A stretch of 64,000 bases of DNA from an uncultured Planctomycetota bacterium (GTDB lineage Bacteria > Planctomycetota > PLA2 > JAEUHO01), in the NCBI GenBank assembly GCA_963802335.1, contig CAWDIE010000008.1, positions 564,601-628,600 on the forward strand, read 5' to 3'. The notes below the pieces were generated by a model. That model worked only from the letters and a program-made list of their open reading frames with translations. It had not been told where the DNA came from and did not search any database. A program made the translations under genes and the position numbers. Shown here piece after piece: positions 1 to 9,109 of this stretch. The first letter of the stretch is position 1, and each line of letters starts with the position of its first letter.

Positions 1-3000
1 CGCAGATCAACAAGAAGTTCGGCCACCTCGGTGAGAAGGTCGTGGGGGAGAACCTCCAGGTCATCCGGCGCGGCTTCGACGAGGTCCTCAAGCTCGACCC
101 CGACGAACCTCCAGGACGACGGCCAGGAGGGCATGCAGGTGCCCGTCATGCCGGCGATCCTCGATGGCGCGGGCCAGGATGCGGGCATCGCGAACACAGG
201 CCGGTTCTGGGAACAGGTGTGCCACCTGTACAAGACGGGCGAAGACGGTATCGCCGACCCCTTCGCCGCCATCAGCGCCATGCCCGCGGCCACCAGCTCG
301 ATCCGCGACATGACGGACATGCGCTTCGAGGTGCCGGAGTTCGTGCCCGACAAGTGCACCGGCTGCAGCGCCTGCTGGACGCAGTGCCCCGACAGCGCCA
401 TCCCCGGCGTGGTGAACACGGTCGAGCAGATCCTCGAGACCGCCGTCGATGCCGCCTCCAACGGGCAGACCTTCGACCGCTTCCGTCAGGTCATCAAGCA
501 CCTCGGACGCGAGTCGCGGCGCATCATGCGTTCGTCGCCCTTCACGACGTTCTCCGACGTCCTGAAGACCGCCTACGCGAGTGTGGCGACGAAGCTGGGC
601 CTCGACCCCGAACGCCGCAAGGCCCTGGACAAGGAGTTCCAGGCCATCGCCGGCACGCTCGAGGACTTCCCCCTCGCCAAGACGGCGCCCTTCTTCGACA
701 TGCCCGAGTCGCAGACCAAGGACAGCGGCGGGCTGTTGTCGATCACCGTCAATCCCGAGACGTGCAAGGGCTGCAACGTCTGTGTCAACGTCTGCCCCAC
801 GGGGGCGCTCGTCACCATCAAGCAGACCGACGATGTCGTCGAGGACCTGCGCCGTCGCTGGGCCTTGTGGCACCAGCTGCCGGACACGAACGACGAGTTC
901 GTCAACATCGCGAGCCTCGACGAGGGCATCGGCGTCCTGTCGTCGTTGCTCCTCAAGAAGGACAACTATCTGTCCATGGTGGGCGGCGACGGTGCCTGCA
1001 TGGGGTGCGGCGAGAAGACCGGCATCCACATGATCACCGCCGCCGTGACCGCGTTCGTGCTTCCCAAGGTGCGCGCACTGGTCGAGCGGATCGAGGGGCA
1101 GATCGCGGCGCTGGACGCGAAGGCCCGCGGCCTGCTGGCCGGCGATGCGGACCTGGAGAAGATCGGTGATGCCGGCAACGGTCAAGCCGAAGTGCCGCTC
1201 GACGCGGACAAGAAGCGGGAACTCGAGCGGATCACGAAGATGATTCGCGATCTGAAGGACCTTCACTGGCGATACACCGAGGGGCCGAGCGGCAAGGGCC
1301 GCGCCGCAATGGGCTTCACCAACTCGACGGGCTGCTCGTCGGTGTGGGCCAGCACGTACCCCTACAACCCGTATCCGTTCCCGTGGGTCAACCACCTCTT
1401 CCAGGACGCTCCGTCCATCGCCATCGGCATCTTCGAAGGCCACATGCGCAAGATGGCCGACGGGTTCATCTCGGTGCGCCGGGCGCAGGAGGAGATCGAC
1501 GGCACGTACGATGAGGCGAAGAGCGAGGCGTACTACGCCAAGTTCGACTGGGAGAAGTTCACGGACGACGAGTTCCACCTCTGCCCGCCGGTGATCGCGG
1601 TCGGTGGCGACGGCGCCATGCTCGACATCGGCTTCCAGAACCTGTCGCGCCTGCTGGCGTCCGACAAGCCCGTCCGCGTCGTCGTGCTCGACACCCAGGT
1701 CTACTCCAACACGGGTGGCCAGGCGTCCACCGCGACGTACACGGGGCAGGTGGCCGACATGGCCGCGTTCGGCAAGGCCCACCACGGCAAGGAGGAGATG
1801 CGCAAGGAGCTCTCGCTCCTCGCCATGGCGCACCGCCAAGCCTACGTGCTGCAGTCCTCCCAAGCCCTCCCGAGCCACCTGCTCGGTGGGGTGCTCGAGG
1901 GCCTGCAGGTACGCCGCCCGGCGCTGTTCGTCATCCACTCGCCGTGCCCGCCCGAGCACGGTCTTGCGGACTACAGTTCGATGCGCGCCGCCAAACTGTC
2001 GCTCGAGAGCCGTGCCTTCCCGATCCTCACGTACAACCCCGATCGCGGTAACTCCCTGGCGGAGCACCTGAGCATCGAGGGCAACCCCGCCATCGACGAG
2101 ACCTGGCCGACCTACGAGCTGAAGTACGTCGACGACGACGGGGCCGAGCAGACGATGGAGCTTCCGCTCACCATCGCGGACTGGGCCTGCACCGAGGGGC
2201 GCTTCAAGAAGCACTTCCGCAAGGCCAAGCCCGACGAAGACGTCGTGCCCTACCACGAGTACCTCGCCACCCCGCTCGCCGAGCGCGGCGACGAGATCCC
2301 GTTCATCTACACGCTCGACGCCAAGGGCCGGCTGGTGAAGACGCTCGTGTCCGTGGACATCGTGCGGCTCGGTGACGAGCGCCTCGACTACTGGGGGCGC
2401 CTCAAGCACCTCGCCGGGGTCGAAGCGTCGGCCCCCGTCCACGACGTCGTGGAGGCGGAGCTGGAGGAGGCCTTCGACGAGAAGATCGAGGCCCTCAAGC
2501 GCGAGTACGAGGCCAAGATGGCCGACCTGCGGGCCCACTACCCCGTCCTCGTTGCGCGACGGATGGCGGAAGGGCTGCTGAAGGCCGGCAACGGCACCCA
2601 GACGGTCGCCGAGCTGATCACGCGCGTGCAGTCCATGCCGGATCTGAAGCCCGTGCCCGCGAATGGGGATGCGACGATGACCTTCGGGTCGGCGTCGGCC
2701 ACCGCGCCTGCGAAGGCGTCGGCCCAGCCGGCCGAGGCGACAGCGACGTCGACGGCGCCCACCGCCGTCGCCGAGCAGGAAGAGGAGGATGAGGGGCTCG
2801 CCATGGAGCCCTACATCGAGACCGCTCGCTGCACGACGTGCCACGAGTGCACGAACCTCAACCGGAAGCTCTTCGCCTACAACGAGAAGAAGCAGGCCAT
2901 CATCAAGGATCCGCGGGGCGGCCCGTTCAAGGACCTGGTGCTCGCCGCGGAGAAGTGCCCGGTGAAGATCATCCACCCCGGTACGCCGCTCAACCCCAAG

Positions 3001-3048
3001 GAGAAGAACCTGGAGAAGTGGGTCAAGCGCGCTGAGCCCTTCAACTAG
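1..3048 (+). CDS. nifJ: pyruvate:ferredoxin/flavodoxin oxidoreductase (single-polypeptide PFOR), 3' ~1000 codons. The 5' end lies outside the window. The reading frame changes near nt 95-130. It has an extra C-terminal ferredoxin-like module.
   Basis: Two ferredoxin-type motifs are present (CTGCSACWTQCP, CKGCNVCVNVCP). The TPP-binding region is GGDGAMLDIGFQNLSRL...VLDTQVYSNTGGQ. The PFOR C-terminal region reads WACTEGRFKKHF. nt 3-107 in frame 3 read QINKKFGHLGEKVVGENLQVIRRGFDEV, the end of domain III, while the rest of the gene is in frame 1 (track ORF 31..3048). Confidence 0.9.
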   Translation, partial: RRSTRSSATSVRRSWGRTSRSSGAASTRSSSSTPTNLQDDGQEGMQVPVMPAILDGAGQDAGIANTGRFWEQVCHLYKTGEDGIADPFAAISAMPAATSSIRDMTDMRFEVPEFVPDKCTGCSACWTQCPDSAIPGVVNTVEQILETAVDAASNGQTFDRFRQVIKHLGRESRRIMRSSPFTTFSDVLKTAYASVATKLGLDPERRKALDKEFQAIAGTLEDFPLAKTAPFFDMPESQTKDSGGLLSITVNPETCKGCNVCVNVCPTGALVTIKQTDDVVEDLRRRWALWHQLPDTNDEFVNIASLDEGIGVLSSLLLKKDNYLSMVGGDGACMGCGEKTGIHMITAAVTAFVLPKVRALVERIEGQIAALDAKARGLLAGDADLEKIGDAGNGQAEVPLDADKKRELERITKMIRDLKDLHWRYTEGPSGKGRAAMGFTNSTGCSSVWASTYPYNPYPFPWVNHLFQDAPSIAIGIFEGHMRKMADGFISVRRAQEEIDGTYDEAKSEAYYAKFDWEKFTDDEFHLCPPVIAVGGDGAMLDIGFQNLSRLLASDKPVRVVVLDTQVYSNTGGQASTATYTGQVADMAAFGKAHHGKEEMRKELSLLAMAHRQAYVLQSSQALPSHLLGGVLEGLQVRRPALFVIHSPCPPEHGLADYSSMRAAKLSLESRAFPILTYNPDRGNSLAEHLSIEGNPAIDETWPTYELKYVDDDGAEQTMELPLTIADWACTEGRFKKHFRKAKPDEDVVPYHEYLATPLAERGDEIPFIYTLDAKGRLVKTLVSVDIVRLGDERLDYWGRLKHLAGVEASAPVHDVVEAELEEAFDEKIEALKREYEAKMADLRAHYPVLVARRMAEGLLKAGNGTQTVAELITRVQSMPDLKPVPANGDATMTFGSASATAPAKASAQPAEATATSTAPTAVAEQEEEDEGLAMEPYIETARCTTCHECTNLNRKLFAYNEKKQAIIKDPRGGPFKDLVLAAEKCPVKIIHPGTPLNPKEKNLEKWVKRAEPFN

Positions 3049-3078: not shown

Positions 3079-4407
3079 ATGCCCACGAATCTCCAGTTTC
3101 GTCACGGGGTCCACCCCCCGGAGTCCAAGGAGCTCACGGCGAGCCTTCCGGTCCGCCGGATGGCCTTTCCGTCCGAGATCATCCTTCCCCTGCGTCAGCA
3201 TGCGGGTCGGCCGGCCAAGGCGATCGTCAAGGCGGGCGACCGGGTCGAACGCGGCGACATGGTCGCCGAGGCCGACGGCTGGGTGTCGGTGCCGATCCAC
3301 GCCTCCGCCGCCGGTCGCGTGGCGTCGGTGGGGCTGTGGCCGCACCCCGACGGAAGCACCGATCTGGCCGTGCGAATCCTGGTGGATCCCAACTCGGCCC
3401 AGGCCCCCCGCCCGCGGGTGATCCCTCGGTGGGAGAGCCTGGAGCCGAAAGAGATCGTGCAGGCCATCCAGCACGGCGGCCTGGTCGGACTCGGCGGTGC
3501 GGCATTTCCCACCCACGTCAAGCTCTCGCCCCCGGAGGACAAGCGGCTCGACGCCATCCTGATCAACGGCTGCGAGTGCGAGCCGTATCTGACGACCGAT
3601 CACCGGACGATGGTGGACTTCCCGGAGCGGGTCCACGAGGGCATTCGCATCATGATGCGCGCGCTCGGCGTGGACCGCGCCCTCGTCGGCATCGAGAACA
3701 ACAAGCCGGACGCGATCGCGCGCATGCGTGAGACCGCGCCGACGGACATCGACGTCGAGATCCTACCCCTCACCGTCAAGTACCCGCAGGGTGCGGAGAA
3801 GATGCTCATCAAGGCCCTCCTGGATCGGGAGGTCCCGTCCGGCGGGTTGCCGATGGACGTCGGCGTCATCGTCCAAAACGTGGCCTCGGTCGCGACGATC
3901 GCGGAGATCTTCGAGACGGGGCTGCCGCTCATCGAGCGCATCGTCACCGTCACCGGCCCCGGCGTGAAGAAGCCCGCCAATCTGCTCGTGCCGGTCGGCA
4001 CGCGTATCGGGGATCTCCTGGACGCCTGTGGCGGACTGACGGACGACGCGATCGAGATCGTCAGCGGCGGCCCGATGATGGGCGCCGCGATTGCGAGCCT
4101 CGACGCGCCGGTCATGAAAGGCACCACGGGCATCATCGCCTTGCGCGCAGAGGACGTGAAGGAACAGGAGCAGTACCCGTGCATCCGCTGCGGGCATTGC
4201 TTGGAAGCCTGCCCCGTGTTCCTCAACCCGCAGGTCCTCGGCAAGCTCGCCATGAACGGGCGCGACGAGGAAATGGCCGGGGAGCATCACCTGTGGGACT
4301 GCATGCTCTGCGGCTGCTGCTCCTACGTGTGTCCGTCGAACATCCCCCTGTCACAACTCTTCTCCGCGTCGCGCGCGGCGCTTCGAAGGAAGAAGGCCTC
4401 GGTATGA
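3079..4407 (+). CDS. rnfC: Rnf electron-transport complex subunit C
   Basis: The N-terminus is MPTNLQFRHGVHPP. The nucleotide/FMN-binding stretch is GLVGLGGAAFPTHVKL. Two 4Fe-4S motifs are present (CIRCGHCLEACP, CMLCGCCSYVCP). The start is 30 nt after the PFOR stop, with GAGG upstream. Confidence 0.95.
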   Translation: MPTNLQFRHGVHPPESKELTASLPVRRMAFPSEIILPLRQHAGRPAKAIVKAGDRVERGDMVAEADGWVSVPIHASAAGRVASVGLWPHPDGSTDLAVRILVDPNSAQAPRPRVIPRWESLEPKEIVQAIQHGGLVGLGGAAFPTHVKLSPPEDKRLDAILINGCECEPYLTTDHRTMVDFPERVHEGIRIMMRALGVDRALVGIENNKPDAIARMRETAPTDIDVEILPLTVKYPQGAEKMLIKALLDREVPSGGLPMDVGVIVQNVASVATIAEIFETGLPLIERIVTVTGPGVKKPANLLVPVGTRIGDLLDACGGLTDDAIEIVSGGPMMGAAIASLDAPVMKGTTGIIALRAEDVKEQEQYPCIRCGHCLEACPVFLNPQVLGKLAMNGRDEEMAGEHHLWDCMLCGCCSYVCPSNIPLSQLFSASRAALRRKKASV

Positions 4408-5450
4408 AGCCCCCGCGTTGGCTGATCACCGCGTCCCCGCACGTCGGCTCCCCGGAGAGTACGCCGCGCATCATGTGGTCGGTGGTTGCGAGCCTCGTTC
4501 CCATCTGCGCCGCGGGCGTGTACTTCTTCGGTCCCAGCGCCCTGCTCGTCCTCATGGCGTCGACCGCCGGTTGCGTCGTCACGGAGCGCGTGTTCGGCAA
4601 GCGTGGCACCCTGCTCGACGGTTCCGCCGTGATCACCGGGCTCCTGCTGGGGCTGACGTTGCCGCCGGGGATCCCCCTGTGGATGGCCTTCGTGGGGGGC
4701 GCGTTCGGCCTGGGCTTCGGCAAGCTGATCTTCGGCGGCCTCGGGCAGAACCCCTTCAACCCCGCGCTCTTGGGCCGCGCCTTCCTGCAGGCCGCGTTTC
4801 CCGTCGCACTGAACACGTGGCCGCAGAACGGCTCCGGCATGACCCTGTTCTCCCACTTCCGGCTCGACCGGTTGAGCGAGTGGGCGGCCCTTCGCGGCGA
4901 CAACTTCGCGTTTCCCTTCACCTCGGCCCAGGTCCCGGACGCTTCGACCGCGGCCACCCCGCTCGGTCTCTGGAAGTTCCAGGACACCTCGACCGAGCTC
5001 TCGAATCTCCTGCTCGGCACGACGGGGGGGTGCATCGGCGAGACGGCCGGCATCCTGATCCTGCTCTGCGGCGCGTACCTGGCCGTGCGAAACCACCTGA
5101 ACTGGCGCATCCCGGTCAGCATCTTCGCCTCCGTGATCCTCTTCGCCGGCGTGCTCTACCTCGCCAACGCGGAGCGCTACGCGAGCCCGCTATTCATGCT
5201 CTTCAGCGGCGGCCTGATGCTCGGCGCCGTCTACATGGCGACGGACATGGTCACGTCGCCCGTGACGAATCGGGGCGCCTGGGTATTCGGCATCGGCATC
5301 GGATTCCTCGTCATCGTAATTCGGACGTGGGGTGGGCTGGCCGAGGGTGTCCAGTACGCGATCCTCCTGATGAACGCCCTCGTCCCCTTCATCAACCGGA
5401 TGACCCAGCCGAAGGTCTTCGGCACGCGCCGCGTGCGGGTGACGTCATGA
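4404..5450 (+). CDS. rnfD: Rnf complex subunit D (polytopic membrane, FMN-linked)
   Basis: The start at MKPPRWLITASPHV forms an ATGA overlap with the rnfC stop. The protein has many TM helices. The flavinylation motif is DASTAATPLG. This is the inner part of track ORF 4179..5450. Confidence 0.93.
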   Translation: MKPPRWLITASPHVGSPESTPRIMWSVVASLVPICAAGVYFFGPSALLVLMASTAGCVVTERVFGKRGTLLDGSAVITGLLLGLTLPPGIPLWMAFVGGAFGLGFGKLIFGGLGQNPFNPALLGRAFLQAAFPVALNTWPQNGSGMTLFSHFRLDRLSEWAALRGDNFAFPFTSAQVPDASTAATPLGLWKFQDTSTELSNLLLGTTGGCIGETAGILILLCGAYLAVRNHLNWRIPVSIFASVILFAGVLYLANAERYASPLFMLFSGGLMLGAVYMATDMVTSPVTNRGAWVFGIGIGFLVIVIRTWGGLAEGVQYAILLMNALVPFINRMTQPKVFGTRRVRVTS

Positions 5451-6184
5451 GCACCGCTACCGACACGACGACGCCGGACGCGCCGGCGCCCCAGATCCCC
5501 CGCGCGGACGTGCCGTCGTGGCGCTTGATCGCGACGCTGGCCGTCGCGGGCGCGCTGGCCGCGGTGTTGTTGGCCGTCGTCAGCGACCTGACGAGGGATC
5601 GCATCGCCGCCAACAAGGCCGCGGTCCTGAAGGAGGCCATCGGGGTCGTCTTGCAGGATGCCGACCGGATCGTAAGCCTCCAGGAGCAAGAGGACGGCCT
5701 GCGTCTCGACGAGGAGGTCGTCTACCTCAACGACCGCATCTTCTTCGGCTACGACGAGAGCGGCGCCCCGCTCGGTTTCGCGATGGTGGGGGGGGCGTAC
5801 GGGTACGGCTCCGATCCGATCCGTCTGATCTTCAGCTACGACGCATCCACGCACGAAGTGCTCGGCCTGAAGGTCCTCGAGCACAAGGAGACCCCGGGCA
5901 TCGGAACGAAGATCGAGGACGATGCCGCGTTCGCCGGTCAGTGGTCCAAGCCGGTGGGGGACGACACGCGACGTCGTGCGCCGCGCCTCGTGGCGGCCGA
6001 CGCGTCCCTCGTCCCCGTGCGTAGCGATGCGGCGCCGGCCTCGGATCCGGCCGCCGAGCGGCACGAGGTCGACACCATCAGCGGCGCGACCATCTCGTCG
6101 AAGGCCGTCATCAAGATCGTGAGCGACCGGGTCCGCCAGCTGGGTGACAAGCTGGCGGCCTGGAACCCGGAGGAGGGGCGATGA
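5447..6184 (+). CDS. rnfG: Rnf complex subunit G (FMN-binding)
   Basis: An ATGA overlap with the rnfD stop marks the start. There is one N-terminal TM helix (WRLIATLAVAGALAAVLLAVV). The covalent-FMN motif is DTISGATISSKAV. The protein is longer than usual because of an insertion before the FMN site. Confidence 0.9.
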   Translation: MSTATDTTTPDAPAPQIPRADVPSWRLIATLAVAGALAAVLLAVVSDLTRDRIAANKAAVLKEAIGVVLQDADRIVSLQEQEDGLRLDEEVVYLNDRIFFGYDESGAPLGFAMVGGAYGYGSDPIRLIFSYDASTHEVLGLKVLEHKETPGIGTKIEDDAAFAGQWSKPVGDDTRRRAPRLVAADASLVPVRSDAAPASDPAAERHEVDTISGATISSKAVIKIVSDRVRQLGDKLAAWNPEEGR

Positions 6185-6834
6185 GAGAGACCACGCCCAG
6201 CGCCGACTTCGTTCGCGGCATCTGGCGCGAGAACCCGGTGCTCGTGCAGATGCTGGGCCTCTGCCCCGCGTTGGCGGTGACCAACTCGGCGGTGAACGCC
6301 CTCGCGATGGGGGTCGCGACGTTCTTCGTCCTGATCGGATCGAGCTTCATGGTCTCGAGCCTCAAGCGCTTCATCCCCAGCGAGGTGCGCATCTCGACCT
6401 ACATCCTGATCATCGCGACGTTCGTCACGATCGCCGACCTGGGTCTGGAGGCGTTGGCGCCCGGCGTGCACAAGGCCCTGGGCGCGTTCATCTCCCTCAT
6501 CGTGGTGAACTGCATGATCTTGGGTCGACAAGAAGCGTTCGCCTCCAAGCGGCCCGTCGGTCGCGCCGTGCTCGACGCCATGGGCACGGGCGTCGGGTTC
6601 ATCATCGCGCTGTTCCTGATGGGCGCGTTCCGCGAGATCCTCGGCAACGGCACCTTGTTCGGTGCCCAGCTCTTCGGACCCCACTTCGAGCCCTGGGTCG
6701 TCATGATCCTGCCGCCCGGTGGCTTCCTCATGCTCGGCTTCCTGCTCCTCGGCCTCGGCTGGTGGGAGCAGCGGAAGGCGCGTCGCCAGACGCCGGTGGA
6801 TGCGTCGTCCGAGCCGGTACGGAGGGTGGCATGA
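6181..6834 (+). CDS. rnfE: Rnf complex subunit E
   Basis: The N-terminal region reads NPVLVQMLGLCPALAVTNSAVNALAMG. The protein is polytopic. The start overlaps the rnfG stop (ATGA). Confidence 0.93.
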   Translation: MRETTPSADFVRGIWRENPVLVQMLGLCPALAVTNSAVNALAMGVATFFVLIGSSFMVSSLKRFIPSEVRISTYILIIATFVTIADLGLEALAPGVHKALGAFISLIVVNCMILGRQEAFASKRPVGRAVLDAMGTGVGFIIALFLMGAFREILGNGTLFGAQLFGPHFEPWVVMILPPGGFLMLGFLLLGLGWWEQRKARRQTPVDASSEPVRRVA

Positions 6835-7415
6835 ACGACAACGTCCTCTGGATCCTGCTCTCGGCCATGATCGTCAACAACTTCACGTTGATGATGTTCC
6901 TCGGTCTGTGCCCGTTCATGGGGGTCTCGGCGAAGGTGTCCACGGCGCTCCGCATGGGGCTCGCGAACATCTTCGTCCTGGTGATCACCTCGATCTGCGC
7001 GTGGTTCCTGCATAACTTCGTACTCCCGCACGCGCCGTACCTGCGGCTCATCTCCTACATCGTGGTCATTGCCTCGATGGTGCAGATCACCGAGATGGCC
7101 ATCAAGAAACTGAGCCCGGCGCTGTTTAGGCAGCTCGGCATCTTCCTGCCCTTGATCACGACGAACTGCGCGATCCTCGGCATGGCGCTCTGGCAGACCG
7201 TGAAGTACGACTACAACTTCATCCAGGGCATCTTCTACGCGGTGGGCGCGGGCGCCGGCCTGACGCTGGCCCTCGTGCTCATGGCTTCGATTCGCGAGAA
7301 CACCGAGCTCAGCGACGTCCCGTCGATCGCCAAGGGCACCGCCCTCACGCTCATCATCGCCGCGAGCTTGAGCCTGGCCTTCATGGGCTTCTCCGGTCTC
7401 GGGAGCGCGTCGTGA
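6831..7415 (+). CDS. rnfA: Rnf complex subunit A
   Basis: The N-terminus is MNDNVLWILLSAMIVNNFTLMMFLGLCPFMGVS. The start overlaps the rnfE stop (ATGA). This is the inner part of track ORF 6144..7415. Confidence 0.93.
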   Translation: MNDNVLWILLSAMIVNNFTLMMFLGLCPFMGVSAKVSTALRMGLANIFVLVITSICAWFLHNFVLPHAPYLRLISYIVVIASMVQITEMAIKKLSPALFRQLGIFLPLITTNCAILGMALWQTVKYDYNFIQGIFYAVGAGAGLTLALVLMASIRENTELSDVPSIAKGTALTLIIAASLSLAFMGFSGLGSAS

Positions 7416-7618
7416 GTCCGATCCTGGCCATGCTCCTGCTGGCCGTGCTCTTCACGGCCTTCGCGCTGCTGACGCGTCGCGTCGAGCCGCGTTCCTGCTC
7501 TACCCACGCCTGCCCCGACCCGACCGATTCCGAACGTGCCGGTTCCCAACATGCCGGCGACGCCTGCGCGGGCTGCGAACTCGCAGCCGTGAAGACGGAG
7601 ACGAACGACCATGCGTGA
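7412..7618 (+). CDS. small single-TM Cys-rich protein sitting between rnfA and apbE (possible NqrM-like maturation factor)
   Basis: The GTG start overlaps the rnfA stop (GTGA), and the 3' end overlaps the apbE ATG by 8 nt. The N-terminal TM helix is ILAMLLLAVLFTAFALLT, followed by RR. Four Cys residues follow (SCSTHAC...ACAGC). Confidence 0.55.
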   Translation: MSPILAMLLLAVLFTAFALLTRRVEPRSCSTHACPDPTDSERAGSQHAGDACAGCELAAVKTETNDHA

Positions 7619-8621
7619 TCCCCAAGACACCGTGCGCCCGGCGTGGCGAGCCGACCGTCGGCAGCTGCTGACCCTGGGTCTGGGAACGTTCGTGGTGGCC
7701 TCGCTGCCGCTGGCGCTCCGCCGTCGCCGCGCCTTCGAGGTCGTGCGTCGGCAGGTGCCGGTCATGGGCACCCTGGCGGATCTGACGGTCGTGGCCGAGG
7801 GCCGCCGTCAGGGCCACGCCGCTCTCGACGGGGCCGTCGCCGCCTTGCGGGCGGTGGACCGGACCATGACCGCCTACGCCGCGACCTCGGATGTCGGGCG
7901 GGCGAACGCCACGGCCGCCCGGGAGGCCGTCGTGGTCGACGAGAGCACGGCGACCGTCGTCCGCGAGGCGCTCGGCTGGGCCGAGGCCACGGACGGTCGC
8001 TTTGATCCCTGCCTGGGACGGGCCACGGCCCTGTGGGACGTGAAGCTGAGAAGCACCCCGCCCGCGGCCGCCGCCGTGGACGAGCTCGCCTCCCGAGGCC
8101 TCTGGCGGCGTCTGGACGTCGGCACCCTGAACGGGCGGACGTGCCTGCGCTACGGGGACCGGGATGTTCGTGTCGACCTGGGCGGGATCGCCAAGGGCTT
8201 CGCCGTGGACCAGGCCGCCCTGGCCGTACGCCGGGTCGGGGTCACGAGCGGCCTGCTCAACGTCGGCGGGGATCTGGTCGCCCTGGGGCGCTCGCCCGAC
8301 GGCGACCCGTGGCAGGTCGGGATCCGCTCACCCGAGGACGCGCGGGCGCTCGTGACGACACTCGCGGTCGAGGACGAGGCCATCGCCACTTCCGGGGACT
8401 ACGAGCAGTCGTTCGTGCACGGCGGGAGGCGGTACCACCACCTGCTCGACGGGTCGACGGCGGCCCCCCGCGCCACCCGTGCGCGCAGTCTGACCGTGGC
8501 CGCGCCGACGTGCATGGCCGCGGACGCCGCGGCGACCGCGGCTTTCGGTCTCGAGGCTCGGCCGGCTGGCGACCTCGTGCGGCAGATCGAGCGGGGCGCG
8601 CGCGTCCTCTGCGTCGCCTAG
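7611..8621 (+). CDS. apbE: FAD:protein FMN transferase (ApbE family)
   Basis: The N-terminus is Tat-like (RRQLLTLGLGTFVVASLPLAL). ApbE signatures are MGTLADLTV, FDPCLG, LGGIAKGFAVDQA and ATSGDYEQSF..HHLLD. Confidence 0.9.
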   Translation: MRDPQDTVRPAWRADRRQLLTLGLGTFVVASLPLALRRRRAFEVVRRQVPVMGTLADLTVVAEGRRQGHAALDGAVAALRAVDRTMTAYAATSDVGRANATAAREAVVVDESTATVVREALGWAEATDGRFDPCLGRATALWDVKLRSTPPAAAAVDELASRGLWRRLDVGTLNGRTCLRYGDRDVRVDLGGIAKGFAVDQAALAVRRVGVTSGLLNVGGDLVALGRSPDGDPWQVGIRSPEDARALVTTLAVEDEAIATSGDYEQSFVHGGRRYHHLLDGSTAAPRATRARSLTVAAPTCMAADAAATAAFGLEARPAGDLVRQIERGARVLCVA

Positions 8622-8677
8622 ACACACCCCCTCAAGGTATGATGCGGCCCACCACGTAGGAGCCGAGGGAGACCACG

Positions 8678-9109
8678 ATGAGCCTGACCACGATCGGAAC
8701 CCGGAGCGTCATCGCGGTGGACGCCGCGACGGCCGTCACCGAGGTCGCTCGCAAGATGAAGACCATGAGCCTGGGCTCCGTGGTGGTGCTCCGTGACGAC
8801 CGTCCCATCGGCATCGTGACGGACCGCGATCTGACCGTGCGCGTGCTGGCGACCGACAACCGTCCGGACGAGCTCCATGCGGCGGACGTCATGAGCGCAC
8901 CCCTCACGTGCGTCCACGAGCACGACGAACCGCTCAAGGCCGCGATGCTCATGCGGGAGGCCCAGGTCCGGCGCCTGCCGATCCTCGGTGGCGACGGGCA
9001 ACTCGTCGGCATCATCAGCCTTGACGATCTGATGCATCACTTAAGCCGAACCCAGCACGAGATGTGCGAGGCCATCGCCTCCTTCCCGGTCTCGCACCAC
9101 GGCGGCTGA
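8678..9109 (+). CDS. CBS domain pair protein
   Basis: Two CBS-like repeats are present (VIAVDAATAVTEVARKM...GIVTDRDL and LTCVHEHDEPLKAAMLM...VGIISLDDL). GGAG lies upstream. Confidence 0.85.
   Translation: MSLTTIGTRSVIAVDAATAVTEVARKMKTMSLGSVVVLRDDRPIGIVTDRDLTVRVLATDNRPDELHAADVMSAPLTCVHEHDEPLKAAMLMREAQVRRLPILGGDGQLVGIISLDDLMHHLSRTQHEMCEAIASFPVSHHGG

Follow-up and report, generated by a model that had tools for sequence, protein, structure and literature searches.

A pyruvate:ferredoxin oxidoreductase-like protein with a tethered ferredoxin tail, encoded within Rnf operons

Pyruvate:ferredoxin oxidoreductase (PFOR) and the Rnf complex are textbook enzymes that are thought to be linked via a diffusible ferredoxin pool. 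In the pyruvate:NADP+ oxidoreductase (PNO) of Euglena and Cryptosporidium, a PFOR is fused C-terminally to a flavoprotein resembling NADPH-cytochrome P450 reductase. A further point of reference is the lipoyl domains of the 2-oxoacid dehydrogenase E2 component, which are swinging arms on Ala/Pro-rich linkers. A November 2026 review of PFOR sets out domains I-VII and one-, two-, four- and five-subunit forms, with no ferredoxin-tailed form; ferredoxins appear there as free partners and Rnf only as a downstream ferredoxin oxidiser (PMC13768988). A review of Rnf and Nqr places tethered Fe-S domains only within RnfB and NqrF (PMC12174285). Here, we describe a PFOR-like gene of an uncultured Planctomycetota bacterium, which lies at the left end of the 64 000-nucleotide stretch of contig CAWDIE010000008.1 that we analysed (the window). 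The gene sits inside an rnf operon and its product ends in a ferredoxin domain (Fd) on a long linker; we call the protein PFOR~Fd. We confirm that PFOR~Fd in Rnf operons is a real and widespread PFOR variant that is not peculiar to this genome. We found no published description of it: searches of the full-text literature, with subscription journals and ~1.7 million PMC articles outside their scope, found neither a PFOR with a fused ferredoxin nor a PFOR gene inside rnf operons.

With the homodimeric single-chain PFORs (Desulfovibrio africanus, 1B0P/7PLM; Moorella thermoacetica, 6CIN; NifJ, TIGR02176), PFOR~Fd has in common domains I, II, III, V and VI, the thiamine diphosphate (ThDP) motif, residues T31/E64/R114/N996 and three [4Fe-4S] clusters. 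It differs in being ~500 residues longer, owing to an insert in domain V, a helical insert before domain VI, a C-terminal stalk, a tether and a predicted fourth cluster on the fused ferredoxin; and it is encoded inside an rnf operon. The tail itself shares its fold, its CxxCxxC...CP ligation and its core size with D. africanus ferredoxin I (1FXR/1DAX/1DFD) and with the mono-cluster ferredoxins of Pyrococcus furiosus, Thermotoga maritima and Bacillus thermoproteolyticus, but compared with ferredoxin I it is fused rather than free, basic (pI, the isoelectric point, ~8.4) rather than acidic, and has a 21-residue helical C-terminal extension. PNO offers a precedent for a PFOR with a C-terminal module that takes its electrons, whilst a Pfam scan of the window open reading frame (ORF) found no flavodoxin, FAD or NAD domain of the PNO type. 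As with the E2 lipoyl arms, there is a small carrier on a disordered Ala/Pro-rich tether of a 2-oxoacid-oxidising machine, with tandem carriers in some members; the cargo here, however, would be single electrons on an Fe-S cluster rather than acyl groups on lipoate, and the resemblance is functional, without homology. The ferredoxin-like domains of RnfB and NqrF are also small, flexibly tethered Fe-S domains that shuttle single electrons within Rnf/Nqr (PMC12174285), but there the tethered domain belongs to the input subunit of the pump and here it belongs to the donor enzyme.

The case for the tail starts from the window ORF. After WACTEGRFKKHF and DYWGRLKHLAGV, it passes through a helical stretch and an Ala/Thr/Pro-rich acidic linker that ends in EEEDEG, and then enters a module that opens with EPYIETARCTTCHECTNLN, continues to CPVKIIHPG and closes with EKCPVKIIHPGTPLNPKEKNLEKWVKRAEPFN. 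The four cysteine codons of the module (2830-2832, 2839-2841, 2848-2850 and 2956-2958), with a proline after the last, give the CxxCxxC...CP spacing. The ORF stops with TAG at 3046-3048 and the rnfC ATG is at 3079, leaving a gap of 30 nt. A first-pass annotation, made from the letters of the window and a list of its ORFs, had read this region as an extra single-cluster ferredoxin module behind a low-complexity linker. Our data bear this out: the two segments, the helical stretch, the linker, the four-cysteine spacing, an in-frame ATG at 2803-2805 and the 30-nt gap could all be verified on the window, and the profile and structural comparisons below gave the single-cluster ferredoxin that the annotation had anticipated.

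Pfam Fer4_13 (PF13370) matches residues 940-992 of the translated frame with an E value of 5e-8 (33.8 bits, against a gathering cut-off of 24.5), and the four cysteines were invariant in every alignment that we made (57-63 homologues). By sequence, the only significant match of the tail in the PDB was D. africanus ferredoxin I (64 residues, single [4Fe-4S]; E value 2e-4). An AlphaFold2 (AF2) model of the last 86 residues, built with 63 homologues in the alignment, had a mean predicted local distance difference test score (pLDDT) of 92.4. The top Foldseek match of this model was again ferredoxin I (1FXR), with a template-modelling (TM) score of 0.85 normalised to the target and a root-mean-square deviation of 1.4 A over 60 columns at 30% identity. 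The next matches were the mono-cluster ferredoxins of B. thermoproteolyticus, P. furiosus, T. maritima and Desulfovibrio gigas, and no PFOR chain was matched in the PDB by the tail, either by sequence or with Foldseek. We therefore confirm the last ~80 residues of the PFOR-like protein as a single-[4Fe-4S] ferredoxin domain, its fold being that of a predicted model and its cluster binding being predicted; the cluster is likewise predicted to be redox-active and of low potential.

Two features set the tail apart. Column conservation across 57 homologues is 0.83 in the tail, compared with 0.74 in the core and 0.43 in the linker, and it reaches its highest value in the whole protein (0.89) in the 21-residue C-terminal extension beyond the ferredoxin core (TPLNPKEKNLEKWVKRAEPFN). 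The AF2 tail model has a short helix (residues 75-82) within this extension, which had no counterpart in the 64-residue ferredoxin I by sequence or Foldseek comparison. Secondly, the tail (2806-3045) is basic across the family, with a median pI of 8.4 and a net charge of +2, which is unusual for a bacterial ferredoxin, and it directly follows the acidic run of the linker.

When the 969-residue C-terminal product was modelled with AF2, linker residues 839-885 had pLDDT values of 29-37 (<50), in contrast to the folded stalk helices and tail on either side. The stalk comprises helices at residues 739-759, 765-816 and 823-831 (pLDDT 60-76), one of them ~50 residues long. Foldseek with the whole 969-residue model recovered the PFOR core only. 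Across the 57 homologues the linker varies from 47 to 69 residues and is composed of 30% Ala, 14% Pro and 11% Glu; its last 14 residues include a median of five acidic residues, an acidic patch that is conserved at the protein level. Because the linker is predicted to be disordered, varies in length, is rich in Ala, Pro and Glu and is poorly conserved, its signature is that of a flexible tether and not of a domain, as judged from the model and the alignment.

To what is this tail attached? The gene begins ~2 kb to the left of the window, at about position 562605 of the contig (G000:C8), with domains I-III (Pfam POR_N, PFOR_II and POR) in another frame. The N-terminal half aligns to residues 3-606 of D. 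africanus PFOR with T31, E64 and R114 retained. When the joined protein was compared with D. africanus 1B0P and M. thermoacetica 6CIN, the GDG...DTxVYSNTGGQ ThDP/Mg motif was retained, including N996 (GGDG...DTQVYSNTGGQ in the window against GGDGWAYDIG...DTEVYSNTGGQ in both enzymes), and the four cysteines of the proximal cluster (cluster A) and both CxxCxxCxxxC motifs of domain V aligned. Pfam and residue alignment together account for domains I, II, III, V and VI, the ThDP motif and the three [4Fe-4S] cysteine sets. The PFOR-like core thus appears to be catalytically competent, with the ThDP site and the three canonical [4Fe-4S] clusters apparently kept. Of the substrate-site residues, T31, R114 and N996 are kept and I123 is replaced by Val; the three kept residues are suggestive, but only suggestive, of pyruvate as the substrate and of its CoA-dependent oxidative decarboxylation. 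With the tail placed on an intact three-cluster core, a fourth, mobile cluster per monomer is therefore predicted. The distant Bacteroidota and Gammaproteobacteria branch has also retained these motifs. An apparent loss of Fe-S clusters in that branch was ruled out, as it came from over-strict motif patterns; in the alignment, all the cysteines are kept as C.GCSE, TGCT and CxxCxxCxxxC-D.

By its profile scores, the protein is PFOR-like but not a canonical NifJ. TIGR02176, the NifJ equivalog model with a cut-off of 911 bits, was reached neither by the window C-terminal half (139 bits) nor by an intact relative (P0004, 402 bits), and NCBIfam held no model covering the long PFOR~Fd family. The two halves of the window gene are separated by a frame switch at or next to a run of four C (G000:C8:564698-564707), with frame 3 upstream and frame 1 downstream. 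The relatives read ...LDPxNL... through this site and are all single ORFs of ~1680 residues; the break is probably an indel introduced by the assembly. A match to COX1 (haem-copper oxidase subunit I) elsewhere in the genome (G000:C5:276979-278305) is also split into two adjacent pieces in different frames, which may be another assembly frame break.

We then determined how widely the tail occurs. A search with the last 256 residues returned 1499 protein clusters, and all of the best 120 had the same tail (120/120). An exhaustive HMMER search with the 82-residue tail returned 1094 representative proteins, and in nearly all of the best 150, many of which are short fragments, the module was C-terminal. 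Two scans of species-representative genomes gave at least 541 and at least 576 confirmed loci. The names of these proteins in the databases are generic ("2-oxoacid:acceptor oxidoreductase family protein", "4Fe-4S binding protein", "ferredoxin"). Within the phylum to which the window belongs, the system was present in 13 of 301 genomes; it is patchy in Planctomycetota and not a trait of the phylum.

Two sets of loci were used to examine the genomic context. The first survey comprised 100 unique loci, mainly from Gemmatimonadota but also from Planctomycetota, Acidobacteriota, Rokubacteria and Deltaproteobacteria, and 83 of them had the tail. Among the 66 tail-bearing loci with at least 1.5 kb of downstream DNA, rnfC was directly downstream in 65, with a median gap of 29 nt between BLAST hits. 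In the sole exception (L064, 15243-21543), rnfC is separated from the PFOR~Fd gene by an insertion of ~6.8 kb with unrelated genes for a MacB/FtsX permease, an amidohydrolase and two unknown proteins. Directly upstream, rnfB was found in 72 of 81 loci, and korAB was part of the cluster in 49 of the 64 loci with 5.5 kb of upstream DNA. The second set comprised 77 loci from Woeseiaceae and other Gammaproteobacteria, Bacteroidota, Myxococcota, Calditrichota and Planctomycetota, including the isolates Methylotuvimicrobium sp. KM1, Flagellimonas lutimaris KCTC 22173, Hyunsoonleella aestuarii, Aquiflexum gelatinilyticum, Algoriphagus kandeliae XY-J91 and Cecembia rubra DSM 28057. Here, PFOR~Fd was followed by rnfCDGEA nearly throughout, with rnfB either upstream or ~1.2 kb downstream of rnfA, and in Bacteroidota korAB came after rnfB. 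The first-pass annotation had suggested testing whether the tail goes with rnf operons lacking rnfB. The association with rnf held in both sets, but the operons are not devoid of rnfB, and this includes the operon in hand: a match to TIGR01944 places rnfB directly before the PFOR-like gene, a little to the left of the window (G000:C8:~561754-562608; 83.9 bits, cut-off 68.7).

Some loci had additional genes. In a locus from a metagenome-assembled genome (MAG) of the PVC group, rnfA is followed by a gene whose product combines FAD_binding_6 with NAD_binding_1 in an FNR/NqrF-like module (L089, 19594-20454), and no rnfB was found upstream of PFOR~Fd. Some Myxococcota and delta-proteobacterial MAGs (L126, L138 and L141, at ~8000-9100) have an extra ORF of ~345 residues between korB and rnfB that is similar to the C-terminal half of PFOR. 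A Calditrichales MAG (L134) has rnfDGEA twice, once within the rnfB-PFOR~Fd-rnfCDGEA cluster and once ~4 kb upstream of it (3-2818).

The relatives that depart from the usual architecture are also informative. One lineage of 1575-residue proteins, from four to five MAGs with delta-proteobacterial and Spirochaetales labels (L065 and L091-L094), ends after the stalk, without linker or tail; it is the only clear-cut lineage of this kind. No rnf or korAB gene was found within 10 kb of these genes; their neighbours are a ScfR-type short-chain acyl-CoA regulator, a methylisocitrate lyase-like gene (phosphoenolpyruvate mutase/isocitrate lyase family) and an enoyl-CoA hydratase. In a midpoint-rooted tree, the lineage is sister to the Gemmatimonadota-type clade, inside the tail-bearing family, consistent with a secondary loss of the tail. 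The tail is a family-wide feature of the ~1680-residue clade, in at least several hundred species, and the position of its gene in rnf operons is near-obligate across phyla. The annotation had named a wide spread of the tail in PFORs irrespective of rnf context as grounds for rejecting it; instead, the tail is widespread only within this one long-form rnf-operon clade. Two distant relatives (P0123 and P0124; 1565 and 1585 residues) carry the ferredoxin tail twice in tandem, and each copy is preceded by a low-complexity linker of its own. Ten further representatives (P0146, P0156, P0157, P0204, P0210, P0223, P0224, P0234, P0256 and P0271; 1188-1647 residues) keep the tail but are missing the YPITP and SNTGGQ motifs, and from their sequences look catalytically degenerate. 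Because these relatives keep the tail without those motifs, the tail may also serve other donors.

The features of the window are collected in Table 1. The cluster order is korA-korB-X-rnfB-PFOR~Fd-rnfC-D-G-E-A-apbE, with genes for a two-subunit oxidoreductase of the KorAB type lying further upstream of rnfB. All six Rnf subunits are encoded, rnfC, D, G, E and A in the window and rnfB just upstream, and the rnfC of this operon is the only one in the genome. Gene X (MPFDEAEQRIFETLERPLGAF..., ~230 residues), between korB and rnfB (L002 4158-5150, equivalent to G000:C8:560758-561750), had no Pfam or NCBIfam match; it recurs in Gemmatimonadota-type clusters, as the first of two 'rnfB' BLAST pieces. 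An apparent 616-residue RnfB with an N-terminal extension was ruled out, as this ORF runs from gene X through an out-of-frame segment rich in Arg and Pro into a normal RnfB of 284 residues that starts MDLTAII. The genome also encodes one 2-oxoacid dehydrogenase E2 and haem-copper oxidases, and the organism can therefore respire oxygen.

Table 1. Features of the PFOR~Fd gene and the downstream rnf genes, in window coordinates
Feature	Position	Strand	Basis
PFOR-like N-terminal half, end (domains I-III), frame 3	1..101	+	POR_N, PFOR_II, POR; alignment to D. africanus PFOR
Frame break, one surplus base or two missing	98..107	+	Frame 3 to frame 1; relatives uninterrupted
PFOR-like C-terminal half, frame 1: domain V, ThDP domain VI, stalk, linker, tail	103..3048	+	
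Domain V, [4Fe-4S] motifs CTGCSACWTQCP (355-390) and CKGCNVCVNVCP (763-798), ~120-residue insert between	355..798	+	Fer4 Pfam, 1B0P/6CIN alignment
ThDP/Mg motif GGDG...DTQVYSNTGGQ, domain VI	1603..1710	+	Alignment, TPP_enzyme_C match
Helical stalk after PFOR core	2353..2631	+	AF2 secondary structure
Disordered Ala/Pro/Thr-rich linker, ends in EEEDEG	2653..2793	+	pLDDT <50, low conservation
Single-cluster [4Fe-4S] ferredoxin domain (EPYI...IIHPG), cluster predicted	2806..2982	+	Fer4_13, invariant Cys, AF2 pLDDT 92, 1FXR fold
Family-specific C-terminal extension, 21 residues (TPLNPKEKNLEKWVKRAEPFN)	2983..3045	+	Conservation 0.89, helix in tail model
rnfC	3079..4407	+	TIGR01945, 515 bits (cut-off 246)
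rnfD, rnfG, rnfE (6181-6834), rnfA; rnfD/rnfG/rnfA bounds approximate	4410..7415	+	Pfam NQR2_RnfD_RnfE, FMN_bind, Rnf-Nqr (twice)
apbE (flavin transferase), usual Rnf/Nqr companion	7611..8621	+	Pfam ApbE, E value 4e-68

The domain identity, the disorder of the linker, the intact cofactor motifs, the conserved synteny and the joint loss of tail and rnf context are shown by our analysis and provide the framework for a mechanism, within which we infer how the tail moves, where it docks, which substrate is used and in which direction the system runs. We consider it probable, from the sequences and models, that the tethered ferredoxin carries electrons between the PFOR-like oxidoreductase and Rnf. 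The ferredoxin domain would hang on the helical stalk and the ~50-residue disordered Ala/Pro/Glu tether, and would swing back and forth between domain V, with its distal cluster, and the side of Rnf that accepts ferredoxin. The most likely docking site there would be RnfB, which is the ferredoxin-accepting input module of the described Rnf complexes (PMC12174285). Oxidation of a 2-oxoacid, probably pyruvate, would in this way be linked directly to the reduction of NAD+ and the translocation of ions, with no need for a pool of free ferredoxin; in reverse, NADH and the ion gradient would drive reductive carboxylation.

Four points weigh against this mechanism. The invariant neighbour of the gene is rnfC and the position of rnfB varies, and therefore RnfC, or the complex as a whole, could be the docking site. 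The tail is basic, whereas classical Rnf- and PFOR-partner ferredoxins are acidic. The KorAB enzyme of the same cluster, which has no ferredoxin domain of its own, may be the real donor or an additional one. Finally, the frame-broken gene of the window could be a pseudogene in this genome.

We also entertain, tentatively and with some doubt, a bolder version of the mechanism. PFOR~Fd might be a physical and stoichiometric part of the membrane-bound Rnf complex and so amount to a seventh subunit, perhaps alongside KorAB and X. The whole would then act as one hard-wired 2-oxoacid:NAD+ oxidoreductase that translocates ions, and the tethered ferredoxin would be its internal swinging arm. If true, this would be a supercomplex of the respiratory type, conserving the ~180 mV that pyruvate dehydrogenase loses, and in aerobes the membrane potential could make pyruvate or 2-oxoglutarate from CO2.

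A different explanation of the tail is that it provides a static fourth cluster. The ferredoxin domain would be permanently docked by the distal cluster and lengthen the internal wire, free ferredoxin or RnfB would dock on it, and the linker would be no more than a connector. The greater conservation of the tail, and above all of its last 21 residues, relative to the catalytic core would fit a fixed protein-protein interface, and the tail is confidently folded in the 969-residue AF2 model. We nevertheless think this unlikely. A disordered tether of 47-69 residues together with a long helical stalk goes far beyond what a fixed neighbour needs, the length and sequence of the linker drift freely, and the tandem duplication of the tail in relatives suits mobile carriers better than a fixed wire.

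It is also rather improbable that the tail delivers to RnfC or to another partner such as KorAB, and not to RnfB; for example, by a non-pumping 2-oxoacid:NAD+ route via the Fe-S/FMN module of RnfC, or by collecting electrons from KorAB. The fixed position ahead of rnfC whilst rnfB moves, the recurrence of korAB without a ferredoxin domain, and the retention of the tail by relatives without YPITP and SNTGGQ would all suit such a scheme. However, feeding RnfC directly would bypass the ion pump and leave no reason to keep six rnf genes, ferredoxin enters at RnfB in the described complexes (PMC12174285), and the window enzyme keeps every catalytic motif, so that KorAB is not needed as a donor.

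The first-pass annotation had considered separate translation of the ferredoxin module conceivable, with the in-frame ATG at 2803 as its start. Whether in place of the fused form or in addition to it, this would give a free ferredoxin of 81 residues. The ATG does sit at the module boundary, behind purine-rich stretches (GAGGAGGA at 2782-2789 and GAGGGG at 2791-2796), and Met is the commonest residue there (M 42, L 11, I 2 and V 2 of 57 homologues). The purine run had been given as GGAGGAGGA, but actually reads GAGGAGGA and ends 13 nt before the ATG. A separate product is very improbable, as 15 of the 57 homologues have L, I or V in place of the boundary Met, the Shine-Dalgarno-like purines are Glu codons of the conserved acidic run (EEED), and the module is found at the C-terminal end of a longer protein or fragment in nearly all of the best 150 of the 1094 representatives rather than as a free small polypeptide. 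The single free-standing candidate, an 82-residue protein (P0237), was ruled out: its frame is open through the linker to the start of a truncated 950-bp contig, and rnfC follows. Equally improbable is a protective or regulatory role of the extension in place of electron transfer, by analogy with domain VII of D. africanus PFOR. Domain VII is short, has a protective disulfide but lacks a cofactor; being C-terminal, it guards the enzyme against O2 (PMC13768988). Many carriers are aerobes (this genome has cytochrome oxidase genes, and aerobic Bacteroidota and a methanotroph are among the others), but the tail amounts to an entire ferredoxin whose four cluster ligands are invariant, it matched ferredoxin I but not any PFOR chain, and it is lost exactly where the rnf context is lost.

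In PFOR~Fd, the donor carries its own ferredoxin and is encoded among the genes of the pump. The arrangement occurs in at least several hundred species of Gemmatimonadota, Planctomycetota, Acidobacteriota, Myxococcota, Gammaproteobacteria (Woeseiaceae and a methanotroph), Bacteroidota and others, many of them aerobes, in which PFOR and Rnf have no clear role. It represents a natural blueprint for passing low-potential electrons from one enzyme to another with no need for a free carrier, and, since there are cultured carriers, direct testing is feasible. If the coupling is direct, it would amount to a new energy-conserving route of pyruvate or 2-oxoacid oxidation, or to a CO2-fixing carboxylation driven by the membrane potential, and would account for the role of Rnf in abundant bacteria of sediments, soils and the sea.

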